DNA from: a virus
Reading direction: 5' to 3' (one strand)
Length of the DNA stretch: 64,000 bases
Virus record (IMG/VR): IMGVR_UViG_3300044614_002195
Coordinates: 134,290 to 198,289 of that record
Part shown: piece by piece, positions 25,443 through 36,037 of the stretch
Numbering within the stretch: position 1 is the first letter of the stretch
Layout: every line of letters starts with the position of its first letter
Program-made: the position numbers and the translations under genes
Notes under the pieces: model-generated
What the model was told of the DNA's origin: nothing
What the model saw: only the letters and a program-made list of their open reading frames with translations
Database searches by the model: none

Positions 25443-25561
25443 CGTACCCCTCCCCCTACCCCCCCACCTAAAATAGGGGGTTTAGAGGTATATTATATTG
25501 AACGGGCTTGATTAGTTTTTCAAGTCCACAAAAAAACCCAAAAACAAAACAAAACAAAAAT

Positions 25562-26062
25562 ATGTCTGAACCAGTAACAACAACAACAGCGTCAGTGTTT
25601 ATGCCATCGCCAATCCAATGCGTAATTGCCGGAGTGGCGCTAGGGTTTGGCGCAACCCTAGGCTATAAGTTTGCCTGCGCCTCATCAGAAGCAGTAAGCG
25701 AAGGGCTACAAAAGAGCAACATCAAGGAAAGAGTCAAAGCCTTGATGAAGAAAAAAGAAGAGCAACCAGCTGAACAGCCGCAGCAAGAAGCTGCCACTGT
25801 AGAGCTGAAGCCAGCGGCCAAGAAGTCAGTTGAGCGGCTCTTAAAGGATAAATCAAAAAACATAAAGTGGGATCAGAAAAAGTTCAACACATGGGCAAAA
25901 GAAAATGCTCGTGATTTGAACAAAATGTACAGCCTTGGAAAGCTGAGCGATCCTACAGAAGACCAGGCAGCACGCGCCTTGAAAATAGGTATGCGGCTAC
26001 AAAAGTCTGCTACTGCGGCAGGCTTATTGAGGGCACCCAAGAAAGCTGCACCAAAAAAATAG
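25562..26062 (+). CDS. Membrane-anchored protein, paralog A (basic tail)
   Basis: MSEPVTTTT...ALGFGATLGYKFACASSEAVS N-terminus shared with 26224. Confidence 0.75.
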   Translation: MSEPVTTTTASVFMPSPIQCVIAGVALGFGATLGYKFACASSEAVSEGLQKSNIKERVKALMKKKEEQPAEQPQQEAATVELKPAAKKSVERLLKDKSKNIKWDQKKFNTWAKENARDLNKMYSLGKLSDPTEDQAARALKIGMRLQKSATAAGLLRAPKKAAPKK

Positions 26063-26076
26063 CAGCTGCAGCAAAA

Positions 26077-26136
26077 AGTCCAATCACTTAACGGTGGTTG
26101 GACTTTTTTTAGCTATCAGCACCCCCCCTATATAAT
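26077..26136 (+). terminator. Terminator + AGCTATCAG box + TATAAT
   Basis: AGTCCAATCAC-TTAACG-GTGGTTGGACT, T-run, box 26111-26119, TATAAT 26131-26136. Confidence 0.8.
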
Positions 26137-26223
26137 GCGTGTGTTTTTGTGTGATAATACTTTGATTAGCCTCAACTTTATAGTTAGAGGTTGTCAATAC
26201 AAACCCAAAAACAAAACAAAAAT

Positions 26224-26655
26224 ATGTCTGAACCGGTAACAACAACAACGTCAGTGTTTATACTCCCTTCACCTCTGCAATGCGTAATTGCTGGAGCTGC
26301 CCTAGGGTTCGGTGCAACCCTGGGCTATAAGTTCGCCTGCGCCTCCTCAGAGGCAGTAAGCTCAGGACTGGATAAGAGTAAAATCAAGGATAGGGTAAAA
26401 GCCTTGATGGAAAAAAGAGAAAAGAAAAACACAGAAAATGAGGTAAATGAAAATGAGGTAAATGAAAATGAGGTCGACATTGATGATGACCTCGATGATG
26501 AGGATGATGGGGATGATAACGAAGACAACGAAGAAAATGGCGAAGATGACGGAGATGAAGACGAGGGAAATGTAGACGAGGGAAATGTAGACGAGGGAAA
26601 TGTAGAGCAAGTTAAGAAAAGCGCTAAGAAGGCGCGACAACAAGCAACTGCATAA
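26224..26655 (+). CDS. Membrane-anchored protein, paralog B (acidic tail)
   Basis: Near-identical N-terminus to 25562; D/E/N low-complexity tail. Confidence 0.75.
   Translation: MSEPVTTTTSVFILPSPLQCVIAGAALGFGATLGYKFACASSEAVSSGLDKSKIKDRVKALMEKREKKNTENEVNENEVNENEVDIDDDLDDEDDGDDNEDNEENGEDDGDEDEGNVDEGNVDEGNVEQVKKSAKKARQQATA
26434..26604 (+). repeat. Two 15-bp tandem repeat tracts
   Basis: GAAAATGAGGTAAAT x2.8 (26434-26475); GACGAGGGAAATGTA x3 (26560-26604). Confidence 0.9.
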
Positions 26656-28069: not shown

Positions 28070-28969
28070 ATGATCCCAGGAAAAGAACATAAAAAAGAAA
28101 AATTTATAACGCTACTAGATAAAATAGCGAATGCTGTAGCTATTCCTGGTATGCGTGTTCCTGCTATAGGTGAAGTTCCTAGCGTAGGTAAATCGCCGGA
28201 TGTTAAACCAATGACCGCCCCTTTTAAGCTAGATAAAAAACTTAATACTCCAAAGCTTAAAGCTAATAGTTCTGCCAGTACGGACGCATTCAGACCTAGT
28301 ATGAGTACTCCTGCTAGAGGTAGAACTAGTCCAGAGCCAAAGCCGTTACGTCCGCAAGAGGTAACTCATATACCTAGGCCTTTCTCAAAGATTGCATATA
28401 AGCGTAATACAGGATTAGTGGACAGCAATGGTTTGCCATATACCAACACTGACGACGTCATACTATTAAGTAAACTAGGGTACACTATAGATAAAGATTA
28501 TTATCTGTTCCTTCCTAGAGGAGAAGAGAGAGAAGGTTTGTACACATATATAGAGAAGAATGCTGGTGTACCTAAAGATGTGAGTAGGTGTATTGATGAG
28601 GGTACAGCGTTCAGTGCGGAATATCTAAAGGATATGGATTATGAGGTACCAGAGGGATATGAGATAAAAGGTGATCTATGTTGTCCTGTCGAGAAGACTA
28701 GAAAAGAGGAAAAAGAGTATCCTGAGAAGACTGCTGCGGCTAATCACGAACTCAAAAGCTCTAACATCAAGGCTGTAGGATATAACAAAGAGGATAAGAG
28801 CATGGACGTAGCTTTCCATAGTGGTGGTAACTATACCTATAAGGATGTACCCAAGAGCTTATTTGATCGTATTAAGCGGGTAAAGAGCCCAGGCAAGTTC
28901 TTCCATAAGCATATTAAAAGAGATAACTCTTATCAGTATAATAAAACTGAGAAAGAAAACCTCGCGTAA
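28070..28969 (+). CDS. Modular protein with C-terminal KTSC domain
   Basis: KSSNIKAVGYNKEDKSMDVAFHSGGNYTYKDVP...SPGKFFHKHIK. Confidence 0.8.
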   Translation: MIPGKEHKKEKFITLLDKIANAVAIPGMRVPAIGEVPSVGKSPDVKPMTAPFKLDKKLNTPKLKANSSASTDAFRPSMSTPARGRTSPEPKPLRPQEVTHIPRPFSKIAYKRNTGLVDSNGLPYTNTDDVILLSKLGYTIDKDYYLFLPRGEEREGLYTYIEKNAGVPKDVSRCIDEGTAFSAEYLKDMDYEVPEGYEIKGDLCCPVEKTRKEEKEYPEKTAAANHELKSSNIKAVGYNKEDKSMDVAFHSGGNYTYKDVPKSLFDRIKRVKSPGKFFHKHIKRDNSYQYNKTEKENLA

Positions 28970-29004
28970 AGATTATCTTTCTATTTATGGTATAATTATT
29001 TGAA

Positions 29005-29478
29005 ATGAGTAATTTAACTAAACAAATATATGTTGAGACCGTCGCGTACCTTAAAAGTATAGGTGTAAAAATACCTAAGCATGAGGTTTTTTTTAAAGAA
29101 GGCTATAGCGGATCATATGTCACAAGATCCAGATACGAGATAAAACTTGTACTGGGAAAATATGTGACGCATAAAATATGTAAAAGATTTGTTATGCATG
29201 AGTTAATTCATGTGATAGCCGCCAGAAAAAAGCTACCAGTAATCTTTAGCAGACAGCAAAGTATTTCCGAAAATCTACCTCTACAGATTCTATCAGGAAT
29301 TCCTGATTGCTTCAGGCCTTGCGGATATGCTTCTTGGTATGCTAAACTAAGCAATGGGGAAGAGGCTTTAGCTGAACTTTTAGGGTATATTTACTCTAAA
29401 GGAAATTTTGGCGAAGTTGATATTCCTGAAGATTTAAATACTGAATATAACAAAGCTATAAACTGGTTAAAGAAGTAA
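29005..29478 (+). CDS. Putative zincin metallopeptidase
   Basis: VMHELIHV (HExxH) and YA...EEALAEL. Confidence 0.6.
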   Translation: MSNLTKQIYVETVAYLKSIGVKIPKHEVFFKEGYSGSYVTRSRYEIKLVLGKYVTHKICKRFVMHELIHVIAARKKLPVIFSRQQSISENLPLQILSGIPDCFRPCGYASWYAKLSNGEEALAELLGYIYSKGNFGEVDIPEDLNTEYNKAINWLKK

Positions 29479-29481
29479 AAT

Positions 29482-29525
29482 AAAAAAAGCTTTAGATTCG
29501 TCTAGAGCTTTTTTTTAGATATCAA
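29482..29525 (+). terminator. Bidirectional terminator + variant box AGATATCAA
   Basis: A7GCTTTAGA-TTCG-TCTAGAGCT8; variant box 29517-29525. Confidence 0.75.
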
Positions 29526-29532
29526 ACATTAT

Positions 29533-30918
29533 ATGAGTCCAAAACTTAAACAACTATATATTAAATTAAGGCAGCTAGCCAATGCTAACTTTGAAAGAGG
29601 TGCATATGGTCCTGGTATAGCTAGAGAAGCACGCGAAAAAGGCGTTAGATTAATTGAGCCTGTGATGCATGAAGGCAACACAGAATATTTAAAGCTTTCT
29701 AAAAAATTGATGGCTAGTGAAAATCCTGTGCTGCGAAGAATAGGGAAAAAGCTAAGTAATTCTTTTGGATTAGAGGGAGAGATACCTACAGATCAGCTAG
29801 GTAAATCTCCCATTAACATTAATCCTTTAACTAATAGCCCTTTTGATTCGCATAAACTACACAAAGGAACACTTAAAACTAAAAAACAGCTAGATAAGAT
29901 TCTTGAATTAGAGGGCAACAAAGCAGAAGAAGCTTCTATTTTTCCTCATATTGGAGAAACTGTAAGATTAAGCGATTTTGAATATGACCGTAAACGATTG
30001 ATTGAAGAATTGCGTAAAAAATTTCCTGAAGGTTTTGTAGTAAAAAAGAACGATGCGAGAAACTCTATAAAATCAAGAGGCACAAAAAGACCGGAGATAT
30101 ATTTTTCAGGAGACGCTAATATTGGAGATATTAGTAAAATTAAAGCACATGACATGACTGATTGGATTGTGCAGCCCGATAAAAAATTAAAAGGATTACC
30201 TTCTTTTCTTAGTAAAATAGATAAACGTTTTTTCCCAAAAGGAAATCCCTCTGGAGCTAATGAATATAGGGTGAACGTTGTTAATGGAAGGATTGTTCCC
30301 TATGGTACAAAGCACAGGGGGAGCCCAAGCATAAACATGATGCAAACCATATTGCCGTTTAGAACTCCAGAGTTACGTCGAGTAGAAAGATACGCGCAAG
30401 AAGCAATCGATGCTGCTCATCCAGATGCCAGGAAAGGGCACTATGCTTTTGATGTAGGTTTTGATACAGCAAATAAGCCTAAATTAATAGAAACCAATCC
30501 TGGCGGTAAGGGTATAAATGGTTTTTATTTTACAGATCCAAATGTTCCTGACGCAATTAGAGCTAATATTCAAGAAAGATTACCTTATTTTGTAAAGGCT
30601 CGCAGAGCTCTTTGGGGAGCAGCTGGTCTTGGCGGACTAGCTGCAGCAACTTCAGGGAATAAAAACGAAGAACAGCCTGCAGCTAAAATGGCACATATTA
30701 AAGAACTTATAAAGAAAGCTGCAAATAAACAATCTTTATTGCCTGGAATTAATAAATGGTTAAAAACTCAGCCATTTAATTATGCTGAGGACGCTTATAC
30801 ACATGGAAGAATACCCAAACATGTAAGAGACGCTATTGTTAGCGGCAGAGCAGCTGCAGAATACAGGCCAAAATTTCAAGAAATATTGGAACACTTGAGA
30901 AGTTCTGGTAAAAAATAA
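29533..30918 (+). CDS. Modular protein with ATP-grasp-like domain
   Basis: GFVVKK, NEYRVNVVNGRIV, YAFDVG...IETNPGG; C-terminal Gly-rich helix. Confidence 0.55.
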   Translation: MSPKLKQLYIKLRQLANANFERGAYGPGIAREAREKGVRLIEPVMHEGNTEYLKLSKKLMASENPVLRRIGKKLSNSFGLEGEIPTDQLGKSPININPLTNSPFDSHKLHKGTLKTKKQLDKILELEGNKAEEASIFPHIGETVRLSDFEYDRKRLIEELRKKFPEGFVVKKNDARNSIKSRGTKRPEIYFSGDANIGDISKIKAHDMTDWIVQPDKKLKGLPSFLSKIDKRFFPKGNPSGANEYRVNVVNGRIVPYGTKHRGSPSINMMQTILPFRTPELRRVERYAQEAIDAAHPDARKGHYAFDVGFDTANKPKLIETNPGGKGINGFYFTDPNVPDAIRANIQERLPYFVKARRALWGAAGLGGLAAATSGNKNEEQPAAKMAHIKELIKKAANKQSLLPGINKWLKTQPFNYAEDAYTHGRIPKHVRDAIVSGRAAAEYRPKFQEILEHLRSSGKK

Positions 30919-30940
30919 TAAAATAAAATATAATCTTCTG

Positions 30941-31303
30941 ATGGAACCCCCAAAATCGATAGACTTAAAACAATACGGAATTGACGTGGGTCTATTGATC
31001 AGTGGTTTGTTCGGGGCAATACTTCTCACCAGTAAAGGGTCAGCCAATAACCTACCTAGAACAATCAGTAGTCTTATAGGCGGCGCAGCAAGCGCCAACT
31101 ATATTACTCCTATTGTAGTATCTATAGCCAAGCTGGACGACAGTCACTATCATTATGGTATAGCCTTTCTACTTGGTTTTCTAGGCTTGAAAGGTATTGA
31201 ATATTTTAGTAAAAAATTAATTCCTGACAACAAAGAAGAGGAAGAGCCGGCACCCATTAAAAAGCCTAGAGCTAAGAGAACAACTAAAAGAAAAGCAGTA
31301 TGA
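30941..31303 (+). CDS. Holin-like membrane protein
   Basis: Three TM helices (GLFGA, GGAASANY, FLLGFLGLKG) and a basic tail. Confidence 0.5.
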   Translation: MEPPKSIDLKQYGIDVGLLISGLFGAILLTSKGSANNLPRTISSLIGGAASANYITPIVVSIAKLDDSHYHYGIAFLLGFLGLKGIEYFSKKLIPDNKEEEEPAPIKKPRAKRTTKRKAV

Positions 31304-31683
31304 CCAATCTAACCCTAGTTAATGTAATAGCCAATAGCACCACTGCGTTTAGTGGGCTTGGGCTGTTAATTCATATATTTGGAGATCCTGATAACAGTAT
31401 CTGGAATAACAGGATGAAAGCTGCTCTGGCTAAGCTAGGGTTGAGTATTACTACATGTGGTGCTGTAGCCAACTGTATCACACTGTCAGCTCCTCCTCCT
31501 ACAGAAGTGGTATTGAATGTAGGTATTGCTGTCACATTTTTTTGGCTGAACTGGTGGCAGTTTGAAATGTTTAAGGCTATGCAAAAATCTCACAATGAGT
31601 TAAAATCTAAAAAACCTAGAACTAGAAAACAACCGGTTAAACCTAAAACAAAAAAATATGAACACAGAACAAGCATACATTGA
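31300..31683 (+). CDS. Membrane protein
   Basis: Three hydrophobic helices and a basic tail. Confidence 0.65.
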   Translation: MTNLTLVNVIANSTTAFSGLGLLIHIFGDPDNSIWNNRMKAALAKLGLSITTCGAVANCITLSAPPPTEVVLNVGIAVTFFWLNWWQFEMFKAMQKSHNELKSKKPRTRKQPVKPKTKKYEHRTSIH

Positions 31684-31942
31684 AGGATTCGTGAAAAGAG
31701 CCAGTGAATATGGATTTTCTGAACACGAGGCTATTGAACTATTGAAACAGGCTGGCAAAAAGATAGGTGTACCAAAAAAAGCTCCATCTATACCTGGGAA
31801 ATATCATAATTCACCTCCGCTAAATTACAAACCTAAATTAATAAGACAAGCTACTTCAGCACAACAAGAAAAATTAAAATCTTTGCAGAAAAAAAACCCT
31901 AGAGGTGCTGCAAATTATCTTTATAACTTGCTAGAAGAATAA
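31658..31942 (+). CDS. MNxEQAY-leader family protein 1
   Basis: MNTEQAYIEGFVKRASEYGFSEHEAIELLKQA leader. Confidence 0.75.
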   Translation: MNTEQAYIEGFVKRASEYGFSEHEAIELLKQAGKKIGVPKKAPSIPGKYHNSPPLNYKPKLIRQATSAQQEKLKSLQKKNPRGAANYLYNLLEE

Positions 31943-31970
31943 TAATTTATAGTTAAATTTCAAAATAGCT

Positions 31971-32618
31971 ATGAATGAAGAACAAGCATACGTTGATGGC
32001 TTTTTTAAGAGAGCAGCAGACTATGGTTTCTCAGAAGAGGAAGCTATAAATTTATTGAAGGAAGCTGAAAAGCCTGGCTTGTGGGCAAACATCAGAGCAA
32101 GGAGAGCTAGAGGAGAAAGAGCGGCTAAACCTGGCGAAGAAGATTATCCTGATAAGAAGCAATGGAATAAACTGACTAAAGCGTCATCGACAGAAAAAAA
32201 TGCTAACGTAATAGAGCGATTACGTAAAACAACAGGATTGCTTCCTGAGCATATAATGGCTGCGGGTACAGGAGCTATAAGTCTTGGAGCGCTAGCGCAT
32301 CAGCTTAATAAAGATAAAAATGAAAAAAATGCTGCAAGCTCTCCAGCATGGCAGCGTAGCGCTGGAAAGAATCCTGAAGGCGGATTAAATGCCAAGGGTA
32401 GAGCTAGCTATAAAAAGCAAACCGGCGGTACTCTTAAGGCTCCTGTGACAGAGAGTAATCCAAAGGGGGAAAGAGCCAAAAGACAGAATAGTTTCTGTAG
32501 CCGTATGTGTGGCATGAAGCGGGTTAATACAGGAAGTAAGGCAAAAAGCGATCCAGATAGCCGTATCAACAAGTCTTTGCGTAAGTGGAATTGTAAGTGC
32601 GGTGAGTGCGAAGAATAG
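31971..32618 (+). CDS. MNxEQAY-leader family protein 2 with DUF6321-like C-terminal domain
   Basis: Leader, GLWANIRARR module, then AWQRSAGKNPEGGLNAKGRASY...RINKSLRKWNC. Confidence 0.75.
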   Translation: MNEEQAYVDGFFKRAADYGFSEEEAINLLKEAEKPGLWANIRARRARGERAAKPGEEDYPDKKQWNKLTKASSTEKNANVIERLRKTTGLLPEHIMAAGTGAISLGALAHQLNKDKNEKNAASSPAWQRSAGKNPEGGLNAKGRASYKKQTGGTLKAPVTESNPKGERAKRQNSFCSRMCGMKRVNTGSKAKSDPDSRINKSLRKWNCKCGECEE

Positions 32619-32621
32619 TGT

Positions 32622-32981
32622 ATGGCTAAAAATGTAACTACAGAGAAAGAGCTCTTGGAAGGTAAAGAAAATCCAGAGCACAAGCGTAGTACTAAATGGG
32701 CCAGTGTGAGAAGAACACACATCAAAGCTAATCCCGAGTGCGCTCTCTGTGGGGGTACTCGTAAGCTAGAGGTGCATCATGTTAAACCTTTTCATACTCA
32801 TCCTGAGCTAGAGTTAGACCCTAACAATCTTATTACTCTATGCGAAGATAAAGGTCACGGAGTATACTGTCATCTGTTCTTTGGGCATCTAGGCAACTAT
32901 AAGGGTATTAATGAAAACCTGAGAGAAGACATACTGGTGTGGAAAGATAGATTGAGGAATAGGAAAAATGCGTCTACCTAG
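32622..32981 (+). CDS. HNH endonuclease
   Basis: CALC...EVHHVKP...NLITLC...CH. Confidence 0.85.
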   Translation: MAKNVTTEKELLEGKENPEHKRSTKWASVRRTHIKANPECALCGGTRKLEVHHVKPFHTHPELELDPNNLITLCEDKGHGVYCHLFFGHLGNYKGINENLREDILVWKDRLRNRKNAST

Positions 32982-33417
32982 TGTAGAGTGCCCTATTTGC
33001 GGCAAAATATGGCGAGAACCTTCTCAGAGGATGCGGGAAGGTAAAACATGTAGCAAAATCTGTAGTAGTATAAAAGGCTATCTGAGCGGAGATAGAAAAG
33101 AAACTGGCATAGAGCTCAAACTCCAAGCACTATTAACTGAAATGAGTATAGAGTTTGTTACTCAAAAGCCTATACTAGGAGTTACAATTGCGGATCTATT
33201 CGTATATCCTAATGTAGTATTGTTTGCTGACGGCAAATACTGGCATCACAACACAGAAGCACAAGAGAACAAGGATAGGGCTATAACTCAAAAGCTAAAA
33301 AAGGCAGGATATATAGTTTTAAGGCTTGAAGAAGATGAAATAAATAAATATATTGAAGAAGTTAAAAAGAAAGTGACTCTGGCCTACAGTTGTCGTAAAA
33401 TAGAAAAGAAATTATAA
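32968..33417 (+). CDS. Vsr/DUF559-like PD-(D/E)XK endonuclease with zinc finger
   Basis: CPIC...CSKIC; IADLFV...FADGKYWH...KDRAITQKLKKAGYIVLRL. Confidence 0.8.
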   Translation: MRLPSVECPICGKIWREPSQRMREGKTCSKICSSIKGYLSGDRKETGIELKLQALLTEMSIEFVTQKPILGVTIADLFVYPNVVLFADGKYWHHNTEAQENKDRAITQKLKKAGYIVLRLEEDEINKYIEEVKKKVTLAYSCRKIEKKL

Positions 33418-33433
33418 CTACCATATAACTACC

Positions 33434-33856
33434 ATGAACACAGAACAAGCATACATCGAAGGATTCTTAAAAAGAGCTAACGAACACGGGTTTAGCCGTG
33501 ACGAGGCTGTCGAACTATATAAGCAAGCTTTTGCTGAAGAGGACGGACCTTACAGGCAAGAACAAGCAGCTAGAATGATGGCCGCAGAGCAGGTACTAAA
33601 AGCAATTGCTCATAATAAAGAGAAACACAAAGGGCATTATTACTTGAATCCTTTCGTGGGAGGACCATTAACTGAAATGGGTACTCGCTTACAAAGAAGA
33701 TTTCACGCAGGCTCGGCTGGAGAGCAAGGAGGGCTGATGAATTCACTTTTAGGTCTGCCTGGCGTAATTGCAAATACGGTCATGGGCGATAAAGAAACAA
33801 GGGACAAGCACAGAGAGATGTATAAAGCGCACTCAGATAAAAAATCTCCAGAATAA
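33434..33856 (+). CDS. MNxEQAY-leader family protein 3
   Basis: MNTEQAYIEGFLKRANEHGFSRDEAVELYKQA leader. Confidence 0.75.
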   Translation: MNTEQAYIEGFLKRANEHGFSRDEAVELYKQAFAEEDGPYRQEQAARMMAAEQVLKAIAHNKEKHKGHYYLNPFVGGPLTEMGTRLQRRFHAGSAGEQGGLMNSLLGLPGVIANTVMGDKETRDKHREMYKAHSDKKSPE

Positions 33857-33868
33857 ATTAGCTACACC

Positions 33869-35146
33869 ATGCCCTTTAAATCACAAGCTCAACGTAGATG
33901 GATGTATGCTAATCATCCAGAAATGGCTGAAGAATGGAGCGAGCATACACCTAAAGGGGCTAAACTTCCAGAACGCGTAAAGCATAAAAAAGCAGAAAAT
34001 GCTATAGACCCTGCATTAGAGCAGGCTCTAAATAGATATTTAGAGCAAAAAAAGAATATAAATGACCCTTATCATCCTAATTATGGTCGTGTATTAGATC
34101 CTAAAAAGGAAGTACTTAAAAAGAAAATACTGGAAAAAATAAAAAAAGACTCAGATGAGTCGATGAAGTTTGACTCAACTATTCCCGCAAGTATTGGTTC
34201 TTTATATGGCGGAGGGTTAGGTCTAGCGGCAGGTACAATAGCTTCACCTAAAAGTAAACTGACAACTTTAATTTTAGGTTTACTGGGAGCGGCAGGAGGT
34301 GGCTATGCTGGGCATAAAATATCTAAGAATAGAAAAGAACAATATAATAAAATAAACGATAGTGAAAAAGATGAGCAAATAGCCGAATACGTCAATAAAT
34401 CAAAAGATCAGCCTAACCAGTATTTTGATAATAAACGCGCTAGGCTTTTTTCTGGTATTGCAGGAGTGGCTTCGATACCTGCATCTTTGTTGGCGCAGAA
34501 AGTTTTTTCATTAGGTGCAGACAAACTTGATAAACTTGAAGATAGACATTTGGACGAGATTATAGAAAACGCTAAACTAAAAAATAAGTTAGACATAGAA
34601 AAACCTACGCCAGAAAGTAAGGTTGATAACGCTTATTTTAAAGGATATAATGGCAAGCCCGGTAAAGTTGGACTGGTTAAAGCGTTATCTGAAAGAGTAT
34701 ATAAACCAGGAGTTATGGCACATGAAATTGGACATGCTAATATTCATGCATCGCCTGGTATTGTAGGAAAAATACAAAGAAACCTTTACGGACCTACTCA
34801 AAAATTTAATATGCTCGGAGGAGGCATTCTTGCACCTAGACTCGCTTATAAACTCGTAGGAAAAGATGACGATAGTATGCTTTCAGGGGCAGCCAAAGGA
34901 GCATTATTAGGTACAGCAGCTAATGCTGGTGTTTTAATTCCTGAGTTTGAAGCCTCGAGGAGAGGTATTAAATACATGATGAATTCTTCTATGCCACGTA
35001 GAAAAGTATTAGGTAACGCGCTATCAATCTTGCCTGCTTTTCTATCATATGGTACAACTCTTGCGGCTCCCTCCGCAATCACAGGAGCTTTAAAAGCTTA
35101 CATAAATAAAAAAAGAATAGAGCACGACGAAAAAATAAATAAATAA
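33869..35146 (+). CDS. Modular membrane protein with neutral zinc metallopeptidase domain
   Basis: MPFKSQAQRRWMYANHP module; glycine zipper; MAHEIGHA...PEFEASRRG. Confidence 0.7.
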   Translation: MPFKSQAQRRWMYANHPEMAEEWSEHTPKGAKLPERVKHKKAENAIDPALEQALNRYLEQKKNINDPYHPNYGRVLDPKKEVLKKKILEKIKKDSDESMKFDSTIPASIGSLYGGGLGLAAGTIASPKSKLTTLILGLLGAAGGGYAGHKISKNRKEQYNKINDSEKDEQIAEYVNKSKDQPNQYFDNKRARLFSGIAGVASIPASLLAQKVFSLGADKLDKLEDRHLDEIIENAKLKNKLDIEKPTPESKVDNAYFKGYNGKPGKVGLVKALSERVYKPGVMAHEIGHANIHASPGIVGKIQRNLYGPTQKFNMLGGGILAPRLAYKLVGKDDDSMLSGAAKGALLGTAANAGVLIPEFEASRRGIKYMMNSSMPRRKVLGNALSILPAFLSYGTTLAAPSAITGALKAYINKKRIEHDEKINK

Positions 35147-35148
35147 AT

Positions 35149-35403
35149 ATGAATACAACACAAGCATACATCAATGGGTTCGTTAAAAGAGCAATGGAAC
35201 ATGGCTACTCTCAAAAAGAGGCTGTGGATATTCTCAATAAACTAGCTGCACCTGTAGCGTTTAAGAAACCTGCTCCTGTTGCTCCTGGAAAACCTGCACC
35301 AATAAAGCCTGGTCAGGGAGATCTTAACGACGCTGCAGCATCCAAAGGCAAATATACTCCTCCCCCATTAAAGCCAGTGAAAGGTCAAGAAGCATACTAT
35401 TAA
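35149..35403 (+). CDS. MNxEQAY-leader family protein 4
   Basis: MNTTQAYINGFVKRAMEHGYSQKEAVDILNKLA leader; Pro/Lys-rich body. Confidence 0.75.
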   Translation: MNTTQAYINGFVKRAMEHGYSQKEAVDILNKLAAPVAFKKPAPVAPGKPAPIKPGQGDLNDAAASKGKYTPPPLKPVKGQEAYY

Positions 35404-35404
35404 T

Positions 35405-36037
35405 ATGCTTAACGCTGAACAGCAAAATCTGTTAAAGCAAATAATCTTTGGGAATAGCTATATTCCTACGCCAGCTCCTGGAGAGGGAGCTTATGACGCA
35501 TTCTTAGAAAAGAATAGAAATATAACAAAAAGAAATCTACAGGCAGATGCATTTAGAAATAACCCTGTCTTTCAGCGCATGGGTGTATCTAATAGCCCTA
35601 TACTTAAAAATCTGAGCTACGCTGTGCATCCTAACAGTAAAATAAACAAAGCACTGTCATATGCTTCAGGCGGAAATACTATGAAAGCTGTGGGAGATCT
35701 ATATGATGGTATGAGAGGTAGCGCAATGGGTAACTTTGGCAGAATCGGTGACATAACCGAAGAGGGAGCTAAAAGTATAATGTCAGGTATAGGTAAGCAT
35801 TTCTATAAACATGCAAAAGAAAAGCTCGTGGGAGGAGAAGGTGACAACAAACCTGACAGCAAATATCCTAAAAAAGAATTGGCTAAAGGGCTAGCTCACG
35901 AACAGGAGCATACCAAAAGTAAAAGCATAGCCAAAGAGATAGCAAAAGATCATCTTGAAGAAGATTCTAATTACTATTCTACTCTAGATAAATATAAAAT
36001 AGGTTGTCTTCGCTCTGCTTTTGAATTTTTAAAATAG
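35405..36037 (+). CDS. Modular protein with DUF5661-like C-terminal domain
   Basis: ELAKGLAHEQEHT...AKEIAKDHLEEDSNYY. Confidence 0.7.
   Translation: MLNAEQQNLLKQIIFGNSYIPTPAPGEGAYDAFLEKNRNITKRNLQADAFRNNPVFQRMGVSNSPILKNLSYAVHPNSKINKALSYASGGNTMKAVGDLYDGMRGSAMGNFGRIGDITEEGAKSIMSGIGKHFYKHAKEKLVGGEGDNKPDSKYPKKELAKGLAHEQEHTKSKSIAKEIAKDHLEEDSNYYSTLDKYKIGCLRSAFEFLK

Follow-up and report, generated by a model that had tools for sequence, protein, structure and literature searches.

Lys-x-Ala at the module joints of mosaic proteins in an uncultured phage: candidate head-loaded polyproteins with a shared leader

Mosaic proteins encoded in an uncultured phage with a 198-kb genome raise the question of why modules without evident relationship should so often meet at the same tripeptide, K-x-A. 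Their genes form a block within a 64,000-nucleotide stretch of this genome (IMG/VR record IMGVR_UViG_3300044614_002195, positions 134,290 to 198,289; hereafter the window). An original prediction, made from the letters of the window, proposed that a head protease specific for K-x-A releases several packaged effectors from each gene. As a whole, the block (Table 1) is best explained as a hypervariable island of 'cargo' genes; it adjoins tail-fibre genes, and some 115 kb separate it from the head cluster. A promoter-like motif precedes it, and the same motif was not found upstream of the head genes.

The block had been viewed as a putative polyprotein system, which is too inclusive, as its holin-like, transmembrane (TM), HNH and Vsr-like genes stand outside the polyprotein set. 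The holin-like gene (phrog_2359 holin, E 2e-11) and its TM neighbour are collinear in relatives (54-99% identity), are not mosaic and have no K-x-A at joints. Both nuclease genes (Pfam HNH, E 1e-6; DUF559, E 2e-7) are kept in the corresponding blocks of relatives, and their products are probably homing or recombination nucleases amid the leader genes.

Table 1. Features of the mosaic block and the prohead protease gene (window positions unless marked as genome; proteins are named by their first nucleotide)
Feature	Position	Strand	Remarks
Mosaic block	28070-36037	+	Mosaic and leader proteins, with membrane and nuclease genes between
299-aa mosaic protein	28070-28969	+	KTSC in C-terminal part
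K107-I-A of 28070 protein	28388-28396	+	Breakpoint cluster at aa 107, 3 HSPs
K220-T-A of 28070 protein	28727-28735	+	Breakpoint cluster at aa 223, 9 HSPs
157-aa protein	29005-29478	+	HELIH (HExxH) at aa 65; no K-x-A
461-aa protein	29533-30918	+	Weak R2K ATP-grasp-like core; Gly/Ala-zipper at about aa 355-375
K394-K-A of 29533 protein	30712-30720	+	Precedes mobile C-terminal LLPGIxKW... module
Membrane-protein pair	30941-31683	+	Holin-like 30941-31303; TM protein 31300-31683
94-aa leader protein	31658-31942	+	Leader aa 1-32 (31658-31753), end LLK30-Q-A; basic cargo
215-aa leader protein	31971-32618	+	Leader, GLWANIR, hydrophobic insert, DUF6321
K30-E-A of 31971 protein	32058-32066	+	
K76-N-A of 31971 protein	32196-32204	+	
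K119-N-A of 31971 protein	32325-32333	+	
Endonuclease pair	32622-33417	+	HNH 32622-32981; DUF559/Vsr-like 32968-33417
140-aa leader protein	33434-33856	+	Leader aa 1-32, end LYK30-Q-A (33521-33529)
425-aa protein	33869-35146	+	MPFKSQAQRRW module aa 1-38; Gly-zippers; M48-like HEIGH region (aa 285)
K40-K-A of 33869 protein	33986-33994	+	Breakpoint aa 39-47
84-aa leader protein	35149-35403	+	Leader end ILNK31-L-A (35239-35247); Pro/Ala-rich cargo
210-aa protein	35405-36037	+	N-domain aa 8-134, then DUF5661 (about aa 138-200)
K135-H-A of 35405 protein	35807-35815	+	Ten HSPs break at aa 128-147
Prohead protease gene	genome 42600-44051		phrog_18299 head-maturation family, E 1e-8

That the proteins consist of small modules joined together, as originally proposed, is borne out by Pfam domains and by BLAST comparison with four whole relatives and other loci, where recombination has placed the same modules in other combinations. 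The modules found in the lineage are KTSC, DUF6321, DUF5661, GLWANIR, MPFKSQAQ, NTG/CCP and a 32-residue N-terminal leader, and they form hundreds of architectures, ranging from single modules of 60 aa to fusions of up to 1300 aa (in relatives, for example, 863, 1144 and 1308 aa). The same DUF6321 module is joined to SNF2, kinase or KTSC partners in 1672 public proteins of 378-2000 aa, its partners in public relatives being SNF2 helicase, P-loop kinase, MazG and KTSC; stand-alone DUF6321 genes are situated amid head or packaging genes of unrelated phages. In the window, the labels KTSC (E 6e-18 for aa 229-284 of the 28070 protein; 64.7 bits, cut-off 25), DUF6321 (Pfam match at aa 132-206 of the 31971 protein, the module part being aa 125-206; E 9e-21, 74.7 against 28.5) and DUF5661 (35405 protein; E 3e-7, 31.1 against 27) all exceed the Pfam gathering threshold. 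The ATP-grasp label given to the 29533 protein has weak matches behind it, R2K_2 (E 1e-3, 19.4 bits against 26.2) and R2K_3 (E 0.015, 15.9 against 26.3) both falling below the threshold.

The individual proteins illustrate this exchange of parts. The 28070 protein begins with a short peptide and a Pro-rich linker, followed by K107-I-A, an 'NTGxxDxxG...CCPVEKT' module, K220-T-A and KTSC; in relatives, five different modules come after the ...EKTA end of the NTG/CCP module. The C-terminal module of the 29533 protein also ends an 863-aa protein of one relative (G001), there after ...MEKEA, and the G001 orthologue of the 29533 protein itself carries K-L-A and the leader module in place of this tail. 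In the 31971 protein, with breakpoints at aa 34, 73-82 and 122, the leader (aa 1-32) and GLWANIR module (aa 33-75) are separated by K76-N-A from the hydrophobic insert, and the latter by K119-N-A from DUF6321; the insert is absent from the L005/L028 homologue. The MPFKSQAQRRW module of the 33869 protein occurs as stand-alone ORFs of 41-47 aa in other phages and elsewhere fused with other partners. According to BLAST and alignment, the N-domain of the 35405 protein is shared with the N-termini of 1000-1500-aa proteins in the same phage group (its BLAST matches include genome 58681-63267, 1528 aa, and relatives thereof). All four relatives, and L005 as well, have K-x-A ahead of DUF5661. AF2 models place the K-x-A of the 31971 protein at predicted helix ends or in low-confidence linkers, and K135 of the 35405 protein at a predicted helix end, upstream of a disordered stretch.

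For statistical purposes, a joint was defined as a cluster of BLAST HSP ends internal in both proteins, and all 400 X-x-Y patterns were compared at the joints. The predicted enrichment of K-x-A proved to be positional: in bulk the block holds no excess (30 against 25.5 expected), whereas at its joints K-x-A ranks first of 400 (10/15 against 2.4, p 1.7e-5). With leader-module joints left out it still ranks first in the window (5/10 against 1.5) and is found at 42/100 joints of the family (15 expected, p 8e-11). It likewise comes first in 120 independent public mosaic proteins (120/316 joints, 45 expected, p 3e-25). After de-duplication it occupies 28/71 joints against 11.3 +/- 2.9 (two nulls, random position and local-composition shuffle), a value reached in 0/2000 shuffles. 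The offsets have maxima at 0 and between +3 and +5. Eight of the ten sites named beforehand fall on breakpoints (SKIAY K107, EKTAA K220, KKAAN K394, LKEAE K30, EKNAN K76, EKNAA K119, KKAEN K40 and YKHAK K135), while DKIAN (K18) and AKMAH (K385) lie off them. DUF6321 has K-x-[AS] ahead of it in 96% of 183 unique contexts, and so does GLWANIR in 91/93; the x is hypervariable. At the joints K and A/S are conserved, and x and the flanks are free to vary. The joint codons vary too, and the joint is therefore not a DNA linker.

The same motif crowds the head genes. A prohead protease gene was located on the strength of a PHROG match, its product having no sequence match in Pfam or PDB; the proteins encoded around it are enriched in K-x-A in this genome and the four relatives (z 3-10), and in the head cluster of a cultured relative, Salmonella phage Arash, K-x-A is the top X-x-Y pattern (44 against 19.7). 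K-x-A was looked for, and found, near the N-terminus of the presumed major capsid protein (K-K-A, aa 24-26; LVKEA at 26-28 in Arash). Head sites have a hydrophobic-K-x-A-acidic context, but the acidic P1'-P2' positions are not common to block joints, which share the core tripeptide only. On a head-site position-weight matrix, block joints are only marginally higher than background K-x-A (median -1.75 against -2.7, p 0.06), head sites scoring 3.3. Homologues of the block proteins were not detectable in the Arash virion proteome (PMC10585845).

The leader connects block and head cluster. This 32-residue module begins four window proteins (module HMM E 3e-25, 2e-24 and 1e-24 in the 31658, 33434 and 35149 proteins; breakpoints at aa 34 with 29 HSPs and aa 35 with 25 HSPs in the former two) and 105 non-redundant public proteins; in a set of 1.84 billion representatives, 541 protein clusters contain it. 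In the 150 best matches, the 105 N-terminal copies precede cargo of 56 similarity groups and end in K-x-[ASG] in 101 cases. The leader occurs twice inside a scaffold-like protein encoded directly after the prohead protease (E 1.5e-15), an order kept in 5/5 genomes; because of this homology to the repeats, it is probably an entry route into the prohead. At its N-edge, K-x-A is present in 96/102 internal but only 2/105 N-terminal copies (p 9e-49), a contrast which, judged from sequence, would fit removal of an upstream polypeptide and not tagging.

T4-like cyanophages provide a negative control and a case of co-variation. The T4 head protease gp21 cuts after (L/I)-x-Glu. In the DUF6321 proteins of these cyanophages, K-x-A precedes the module in 0/42 cases and Glu in 41/42. 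At the breakpoints of these proteins K-x-A is only 132nd of the 400 patterns, and GLWANIR comes after [LI]-x-E (2-4 contexts only). This co-variation of the joint covers two lineages only.

Since K-x-A both joins modules and crowds head-assembly proteins, it probably marks head-protease cuts of packaged polyproteins. We infer, by analogy with the T4 internal proteins and with chances that we judge about even, that the block products are head-loaded cargo polyproteins cut at K-x-A. The phage's own prohead protease would recognise the K-x-[A/S] joint; the mosaic proteins would be loaded into the prohead ahead of maturation, those with a leader probably being brought in through it, and would be cut apart into single modules as the head matures. 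Such a scheme would resemble that of T4 internal proteins, which have a capsid-targeting sequence, except that Lys-x-Ala would replace Glu as the code and that one gene would supply several modules. Gly-zipper, TM-like segments or HExxH motifs in several block members count against it, and so do the distance from the head cluster, the tail-fibre neighbours, the lack of a bulk K-x-A excess, the head-site context that block joints do not share, and the promoter-like motif not found before head genes.

Other explanations of the joint appear unlikely. K-x-A could be a non-proteolytic linker signal, such as a Lys acceptor for ubiquitin-like tagging or another modification. The motif resembles psi-K-x-E, the SUMO consensus; head sites have the hydrophobic and acidic flanks described above, the linkers are accessible, and a Ubl cassette is present in the phage and all four relatives. 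We nevertheless think tagging improbable: the upstream motif is all but confined to internal leader copies, and the cyanophage equivalents are of a Glu type resembling the T4 rule.

Little probability likewise attaches to a functionless K-x-A, an N-terminal extension or helix cap that hitch-hikes with a few very successful modules spread by recombination. Should each module simply carry the motif along in an extension that it has inherited at its N-terminus, many joints would not count as separate events, and the joint statistics would reflect shared ancestry; many joints are indeed copies of few module edges, one insert is bracketed by a 12-nt direct repeat, the block contains HNH and Vsr-like genes, and K-x-A tends to fall at predicted helix C-termini. 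Against this, at least eight unrelated modules bear the motif, at either the N or the C edge, K and A/S persist while x, flanks and codons vary, the enrichment remains high in de-duplicated contexts, and in other lineages these modules occur without it.

Equally slim are the chances that the joints serve another protease, whether host or HExxH zincin-like, acting in the cytoplasm or after delivery. HExxH motifs occur in the 29005 protein, in the 33869 protein (weak Pfam Peptidase_M48, E 2e-4, beside a glycine-zipper match) and, as HHELGH (Pfam M13, E 0.004), in G001_63369 of a relative, and zincin processing of polyvalent proteins is predicted by Iyer et al. 2017 (PMC5512222); such modules are, however, sporadic, whereas K-x-A joints are lineage-wide and the motif crowds head proteins around a conserved prohead protease. 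The 29005 protein, without a match in Pfam or PHROG, is a possible small zincin-type peptidase, but its orthologue is found in only one of four relatives (G001) and it therefore cannot be the general K-x-A protease; the peptidase part of the 33869 protein has an orthologue in none of the four.

Cutting by the prohead protease, the reading we prefer, can be extended, more tentatively and on balance doubtfully, to a lineage-wide plug-and-play cargo, in which any small module flanked by Lys-x-Ala could be recombined into any gene, enter the head by a scaffold-mimicking leader or N-domain and be released by the head protease, with a Glu-type version in cyanophages. The protease specificity would then be P3 Lys and P1 Ala/Ser, to our knowledge unlike the Glu-type rules of phage prohead proteases. 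If true, the occurrence of the same scheme with Glu-type joints in T4-like cyanophages would make processed polyproteins a general, overlooked way of packaging. New here are the joint grammar, the leader module, the contrast between N-terminal and internal copies, and the cyanophage co-variation. Should the joints be cut, a capsid protease of the T4/herpes type would have a new substrate rule, and there would be a natural modular means by which many small proteins are loaded into a capsid and released, likely to interest phage engineers in the way that the T4 targeting sequence does now; leader and K-x-A rule together would predict virion cargo in thousands of unannotated genes of uncultured phages (DUF6321, DUF5661, KTSC and others). 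The Arash capsid protein is predicted to start at GAAMSAF, and the co-variation predicts that Syn9 gp114-type proteins are cut by gp21 just ahead of DUF6321.

Among known systems, the head-internal proteins IPI-III and Alt of T4 have an N-terminal capsid-targeting sequence and are processed by the gp21 prohead protease. As in T4, one short leader ending in a candidate protease motif precedes unrelated small proteins, head scaffold or core proteins are full of the same motif, and the protease gene adjoins a scaffold-like gene. Unlike in T4, the leader has 32 residues of unrelated sequence that are homologous to repeats of the scaffold-like protein; Lys-x-Ala takes the place of the (L/I)-x-Glu of the gp21 family, many genes hold several motif-separated modules, and the island is distal. 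T4 propeptides direct proteins into the prohead core (PMC10052503). Ejection and inner-body proteins of giant phages are cut by phiKZ gp175 after S/A/G-x-E and by SPN3US gp245 after A-x-E (PMC10052503, PMC5694885); these phages, too, possess many head-internal proteins in paralogous families, each protein being cleaved several times by a prohead protease of the T4 type, features here predicted. Their motif is a different one, the cuts proposed here would part functional modules and not just remove propeptides, and the protease here matched the PHROG head-maturation family only. The polyvalent proteins of phages and conjugative elements (PMC5512222) are predicted to be delivered along with DNA and are comparable in their multi-module, fast-shuffled, variable architectures; candidate zincin-like HExxH modules, with weak or absent Pfam matches, occur here as well. 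They differ from the window proteins, which are small (84-461 aa), gave no Pfam match to MuF or a known head anchor among the proteins searched, and are encoded beside tail-fibre genes and not near portal or terminase; and the processor proposed here would be a prohead protease that recognises a short, defined motif at the joints.

The 64-kb window is the 3' terminal part (134290-198289) of a 198,289-bp IMG/VR phage record, rated complete by CheckV and encoding tRNAs and a tmRNA. The block in question, whose proteins are named here by window start, comprises 13 ORFs on the plus strand. Small membrane-type genes adjoin it on one side and a series of collagen-like tail-fibre genes on the other, and it lies ~115 kb from the head cluster. 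The small modules originally recognised in these proteins are real: KTSC, DUF6321 and DUF5661 exceed their Pfam thresholds, and the MPFKSQAQRRW module (33869 protein, aa 1-38) also occurs as free-standing ORFs of 41-47 aa in many phage contigs and is joined to different partners in other phages. The ATP-grasp label of the 29533 protein was not upheld, its match falling short of the cut-off. Four genes (30941, 31300, 32622 and 32968) are collinear with relatives and lie outside any mosaic; the HNH and DUF559/Vsr-like pair among them (window 32622-33417), situated amid genes that open with a common leader module, is kept in all relatives and could be a driver of module shuffling. DUF5661, a module of only ~65 aa, carries a conserved H-E-x-E-H (aa 165-169 of the 35405-36037 protein) in every copy examined, relatives included, which may represent a zincin-like spelling of HExxH. 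Two neighbouring small paralogues (window 25508-26655) have a common N-terminal TM region, the second bearing a long acidic tail of NEVNENEV/DEGNV repeats.

Coordinates of genes, modules and sequence elements
Feature	Location	Match or remark
Prohead protease gene	genome 42600-44051	phrog_18299, E 1e-8
Scaffold-like head protein with EF-hand-like motif	genome 44104-45228 (L002:13104-14228)	
KTSC	28070 protein, aa 229-284	Pfam, above threshold
R2K_2 (ATP-grasp)	29533 protein	Pfam 19.4 bits, sub-threshold (cut-off 26.2)
Holin-like gene	30941	not mosaic
TM protein	31300	not mosaic
DUF6321	31971 protein, aa 132-206	Pfam, above threshold
HNH endonuclease	32622	not mosaic
DUF559/Vsr-like endonuclease	32968	not mosaic
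M48-like	33869 protein	Pfam 21.7 bits, just over cut-off 20.3; E 2e-4
DUF5661	35405 protein	Pfam, above threshold
TTTTTTTAGCTATCAG element	window 25221, 26110, 26736, 27929, 12752, 6683; genome 3003, 7061, 17307	
TGGTATAAT(A)TATTGA	window 28988 (9 nt 5' of 29005 ORF), 22993, 10900, 2053; genome 1012, 6064, 8427, 91222	

The original prediction held that K-x-A marks the junctions between modules, and named ten such sites. Because this claim is positional, joints were defined blind to the motif, as clustered HSP ends internal to both partner proteins in an all-against-all BLASTP comparison that took in relatives (four whole genomes of 168-204 kb and other loci), and the occurrence of all 400 X-x-Y patterns within +/-6 residues of a joint was compared with the expectation from pattern density. 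K-x-A ranked first in every set except relative G001 (rank 2), and was found at 10 of the 15 joints of the window block, where 2.4 were expected (p 1.7e-5). With all leader-module joints removed it still marked 5/10 joints in the window (1.5 expected) and 42/100 in the block's wider family (15 expected, p 8e-11). In de-duplicated contexts it occurred at 28 of 71 joints against 11.3 +/- 2.9, a value reached in 0/2000 trials under random-position and local-composition-shuffle nulls, and the offset histogram has its maximum exactly on the breakpoint. Eight of the ten named sites lie on breakpoints, while DKIAN (K18) and AKMAH (K385) do not. By contrast, a bulk excess is absent from the block (30 seen versus 25.5 expected from per-protein shuffles), so that what stands confirmed is a positional enrichment and not a bulk one. 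In AF2 models the sites are predicted at helix ends next to low-confidence linkers; the 31971 model is informative at the module level only, and that of 35405 (pLDDT 55) is too poor for a fold search.

Across the genome, only the proteins encoded near the prohead protease gene and a 351-aa protein (genome 93207-94262, L003:1207-2262, outside the window) are strongly enriched in K-x-A (z 3-9). The latter, remote from the head cluster and with a weak DUF6582 match, contains 15 K-x-A (z ~9) and is equally enriched in all four relatives.

Genes 31658, 31971, 33434 and 35149 open with one two-helix leader module of 32 residues, MNxEQAYIxGFxKRAxExGFSxxEAxxLLKxA. Two internal copies (E 1.5e-15) are found in the 374-aa scaffold-like protein encoded directly 3' of the protease gene, an order conserved in 5/5 genomes, and two small neighbouring head-cluster ORFs hold one copy each, the second weak (E 0.011). 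Searched as a profile against 1.84 billion representative proteins, the leader gave 541 matches, of which the top 150 contain 105 N-terminal and 102 internal copies. Proteins with N-terminal copies have a median length of 147 aa and carry cargo of 56 similarity groups, and in 101/105 of these copies the leader ends in K-x-[ASG]. Directly upstream of the leader, K-x-A precedes 96 of the 102 internal copies but only 2 of the 105 N-terminal ones (Fisher p 9e-49), a contrast repeated on the fetched loci. This is what cleavage predicts, since an upstream cut is needed only where an upstream polypeptide exists. We propose, with partial support from these sequence comparisons, that the block polyproteins may be packaged and processed at K-x-A by the prohead protease. 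The distance of the block from the head cluster counts against this, as do Gly-zipper or TM-like segments in several block members, although the scaffold-like protein has such segments too; Gly/Ala-zipper segments also lie upstream of internal leader copies, and an EF-hand-like motif, DVDxDGKIExxDLKKLR, is common to the scaffold-like protein and the cargo of several leader proteins (L018, G002).

Alternatively, the processing enzyme could be one of the HExxH modules embedded in the mosaic proteins, but their occurrence among relatives is sporadic. The K-x-A lysine may instead be a modification site for ubiquitin-like tagging, for which a kit (Ubl cassette) is encoded in all relatives; this very ubiquity makes its presence or absence uninformative, and the contrast between N-terminal and internal leader copies disfavours lysine modification. 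A DNA linker left by recombination is ruled out, because both x and the joint codons vary (AAA/AAG for K; GCT/GCA/GCG for A), which points to a protein-level signal, the one exception being a 12-nt direct repeat, GAAAAAAATGCT (coding for E-K-N-A; window 32193-32204 and 32322-32333). Between the two copies of this repeat, the 31971 gene has a hydrophobic insert of 43 codons that is missing in the L005/L028 homologue.

The joint signal recurs in public proteins. When the DUF6321 part was used as a database query, it recovered 1672 proteins of 378-2000 aa with this module at 80-94% identity, in very diverse architectures that pair it with SNF2 helicase, P-loop kinase or KTSC. Among the best 120 of these, K-x-A clearly outranked every other pattern, occurring at 120 of 316 distinct joints (45 expected, p 3e-25). 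DUF6321 is preceded by K-x-[AS]-[ASG]-S-P-AWQR in 96% of 183 unique contexts and GLWANIR, another small module, by K-x-[AS] in 91/93, x being hypervariable before both. Searches for related loci with single queries (the 29533 protein; the scaffold-like protein) gave no relatives; these were recovered with a module alignment as query. We found no publication on DUF6321.

Contexts in other lineages indicate that K-x-A is not intrinsic to these modules. In Pelagibacter phage HTVC115P, DUF6321 begins at MAKSPAWQR. T4-like cyanophages have K-x-[AS] in none of 42 unique contexts before DUF6321 and Glu at -3 in 41 (..V-x-x-E-G-A-A-W; [LIVM]-x-E in 55%), and their GLWANIR follows S-I-D-E, S-L-D-E or T-L-E-E in the few contexts available. 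At cyanophage breakpoints K-x-A ranks 132/400, I-x-E and T-x-E being mildly enriched. T4's own head protease cuts after Glu. The joint motif thus appears to track the head-protease code of the lineage, as judged from two lineages and few cyanophage GLWANIR contexts. In cyanophage DUF6321 fusions (L076, i.e. Syn9 gp114, L077, L079-L081; P0391-P0510) the x-x-E-G-A-A-W joint is nearly invariant, and [LI]-x-E stands ahead of GLWANIR. These fusion proteins are predicted to be gp21 substrates, a cleavage of which we found no description in the literature. Stand-alone DUF6321 genes of unrelated phages (L075, L082, L083, L080, L077) are placed between the scaffold gene and the capsid gene in HTVC031P, directly 3' of the capsid gene in P-SCSP1h and HTVC115P, or between terminase subunits in S-CAM1 and MED4-213, positions that suggest a head-associated role.

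The prohead protease gene was located, its product having no sequence match in Pfam or PDB. K-K-A occupies aa 24-26 of the presumed capsid protein, whose sequence is 90-96% identical across the relatives. In the nearest cultured relative, Salmonella phage Arash (capsid protein identity 29%), K-x-A is the top pattern of the head cluster (44 vs 19.7), the scaffold-like gp223 has three leader-like repeats, all with K-x-A upstream and two ending in LVKEA, and the capsid protein has LVKEA at 26-28. No homologues of block proteins were found in two stretches covering ~99 of its 181 kb. The Arash virion proteome comprises 116 proteins; neither the paper nor its supplementary material gives data on peptides or cleavage (PMC10585845). 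Transfer of a head-site weight matrix (hydrophobic P4/P5, acidic P1'-P2') to the block joints failed, as these scored barely over background (median -1.75 vs -2.7, p 0.06), head K-x-A sites themselves reaching 3.3 on the same scale.

A promoter motif common to block and head genes was sought and not found. A conserved TTTTTTTAGCTATCAG element, often within a GC-stem hairpin, is found ahead of small genes, among them 28070, the first of the block, and none was seen before head genes; its appearance is that of a terminator/promoter cassette. The HELIH-peptidase ORF, a tRNA cluster and several small genes are preceded by an extended -10-like motif, TGGTATAAT(A)TATTGA, which may represent an early-promoter class.

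Prohead-protease motifs that we found described in the literature are of the Glu type only. What the present analysis adds is a joint grammar within a mosaic island distal to the head genes, a leader module, and co-variation of the joint motif with lineage. Closest in function would be the internal proteins of T4, which bear a capsid-targeting sequence, and the ejection proteins that undergo processing in phiKZ and SPN3US (PMC10052503). The block proteins belong to the T4 system neither by sequence nor by motif. In architecture they resemble the polyvalent proteins of Iyer et al. (PMC5512222), but lack the MuF-type anchor typical of phage polyvalent proteins.
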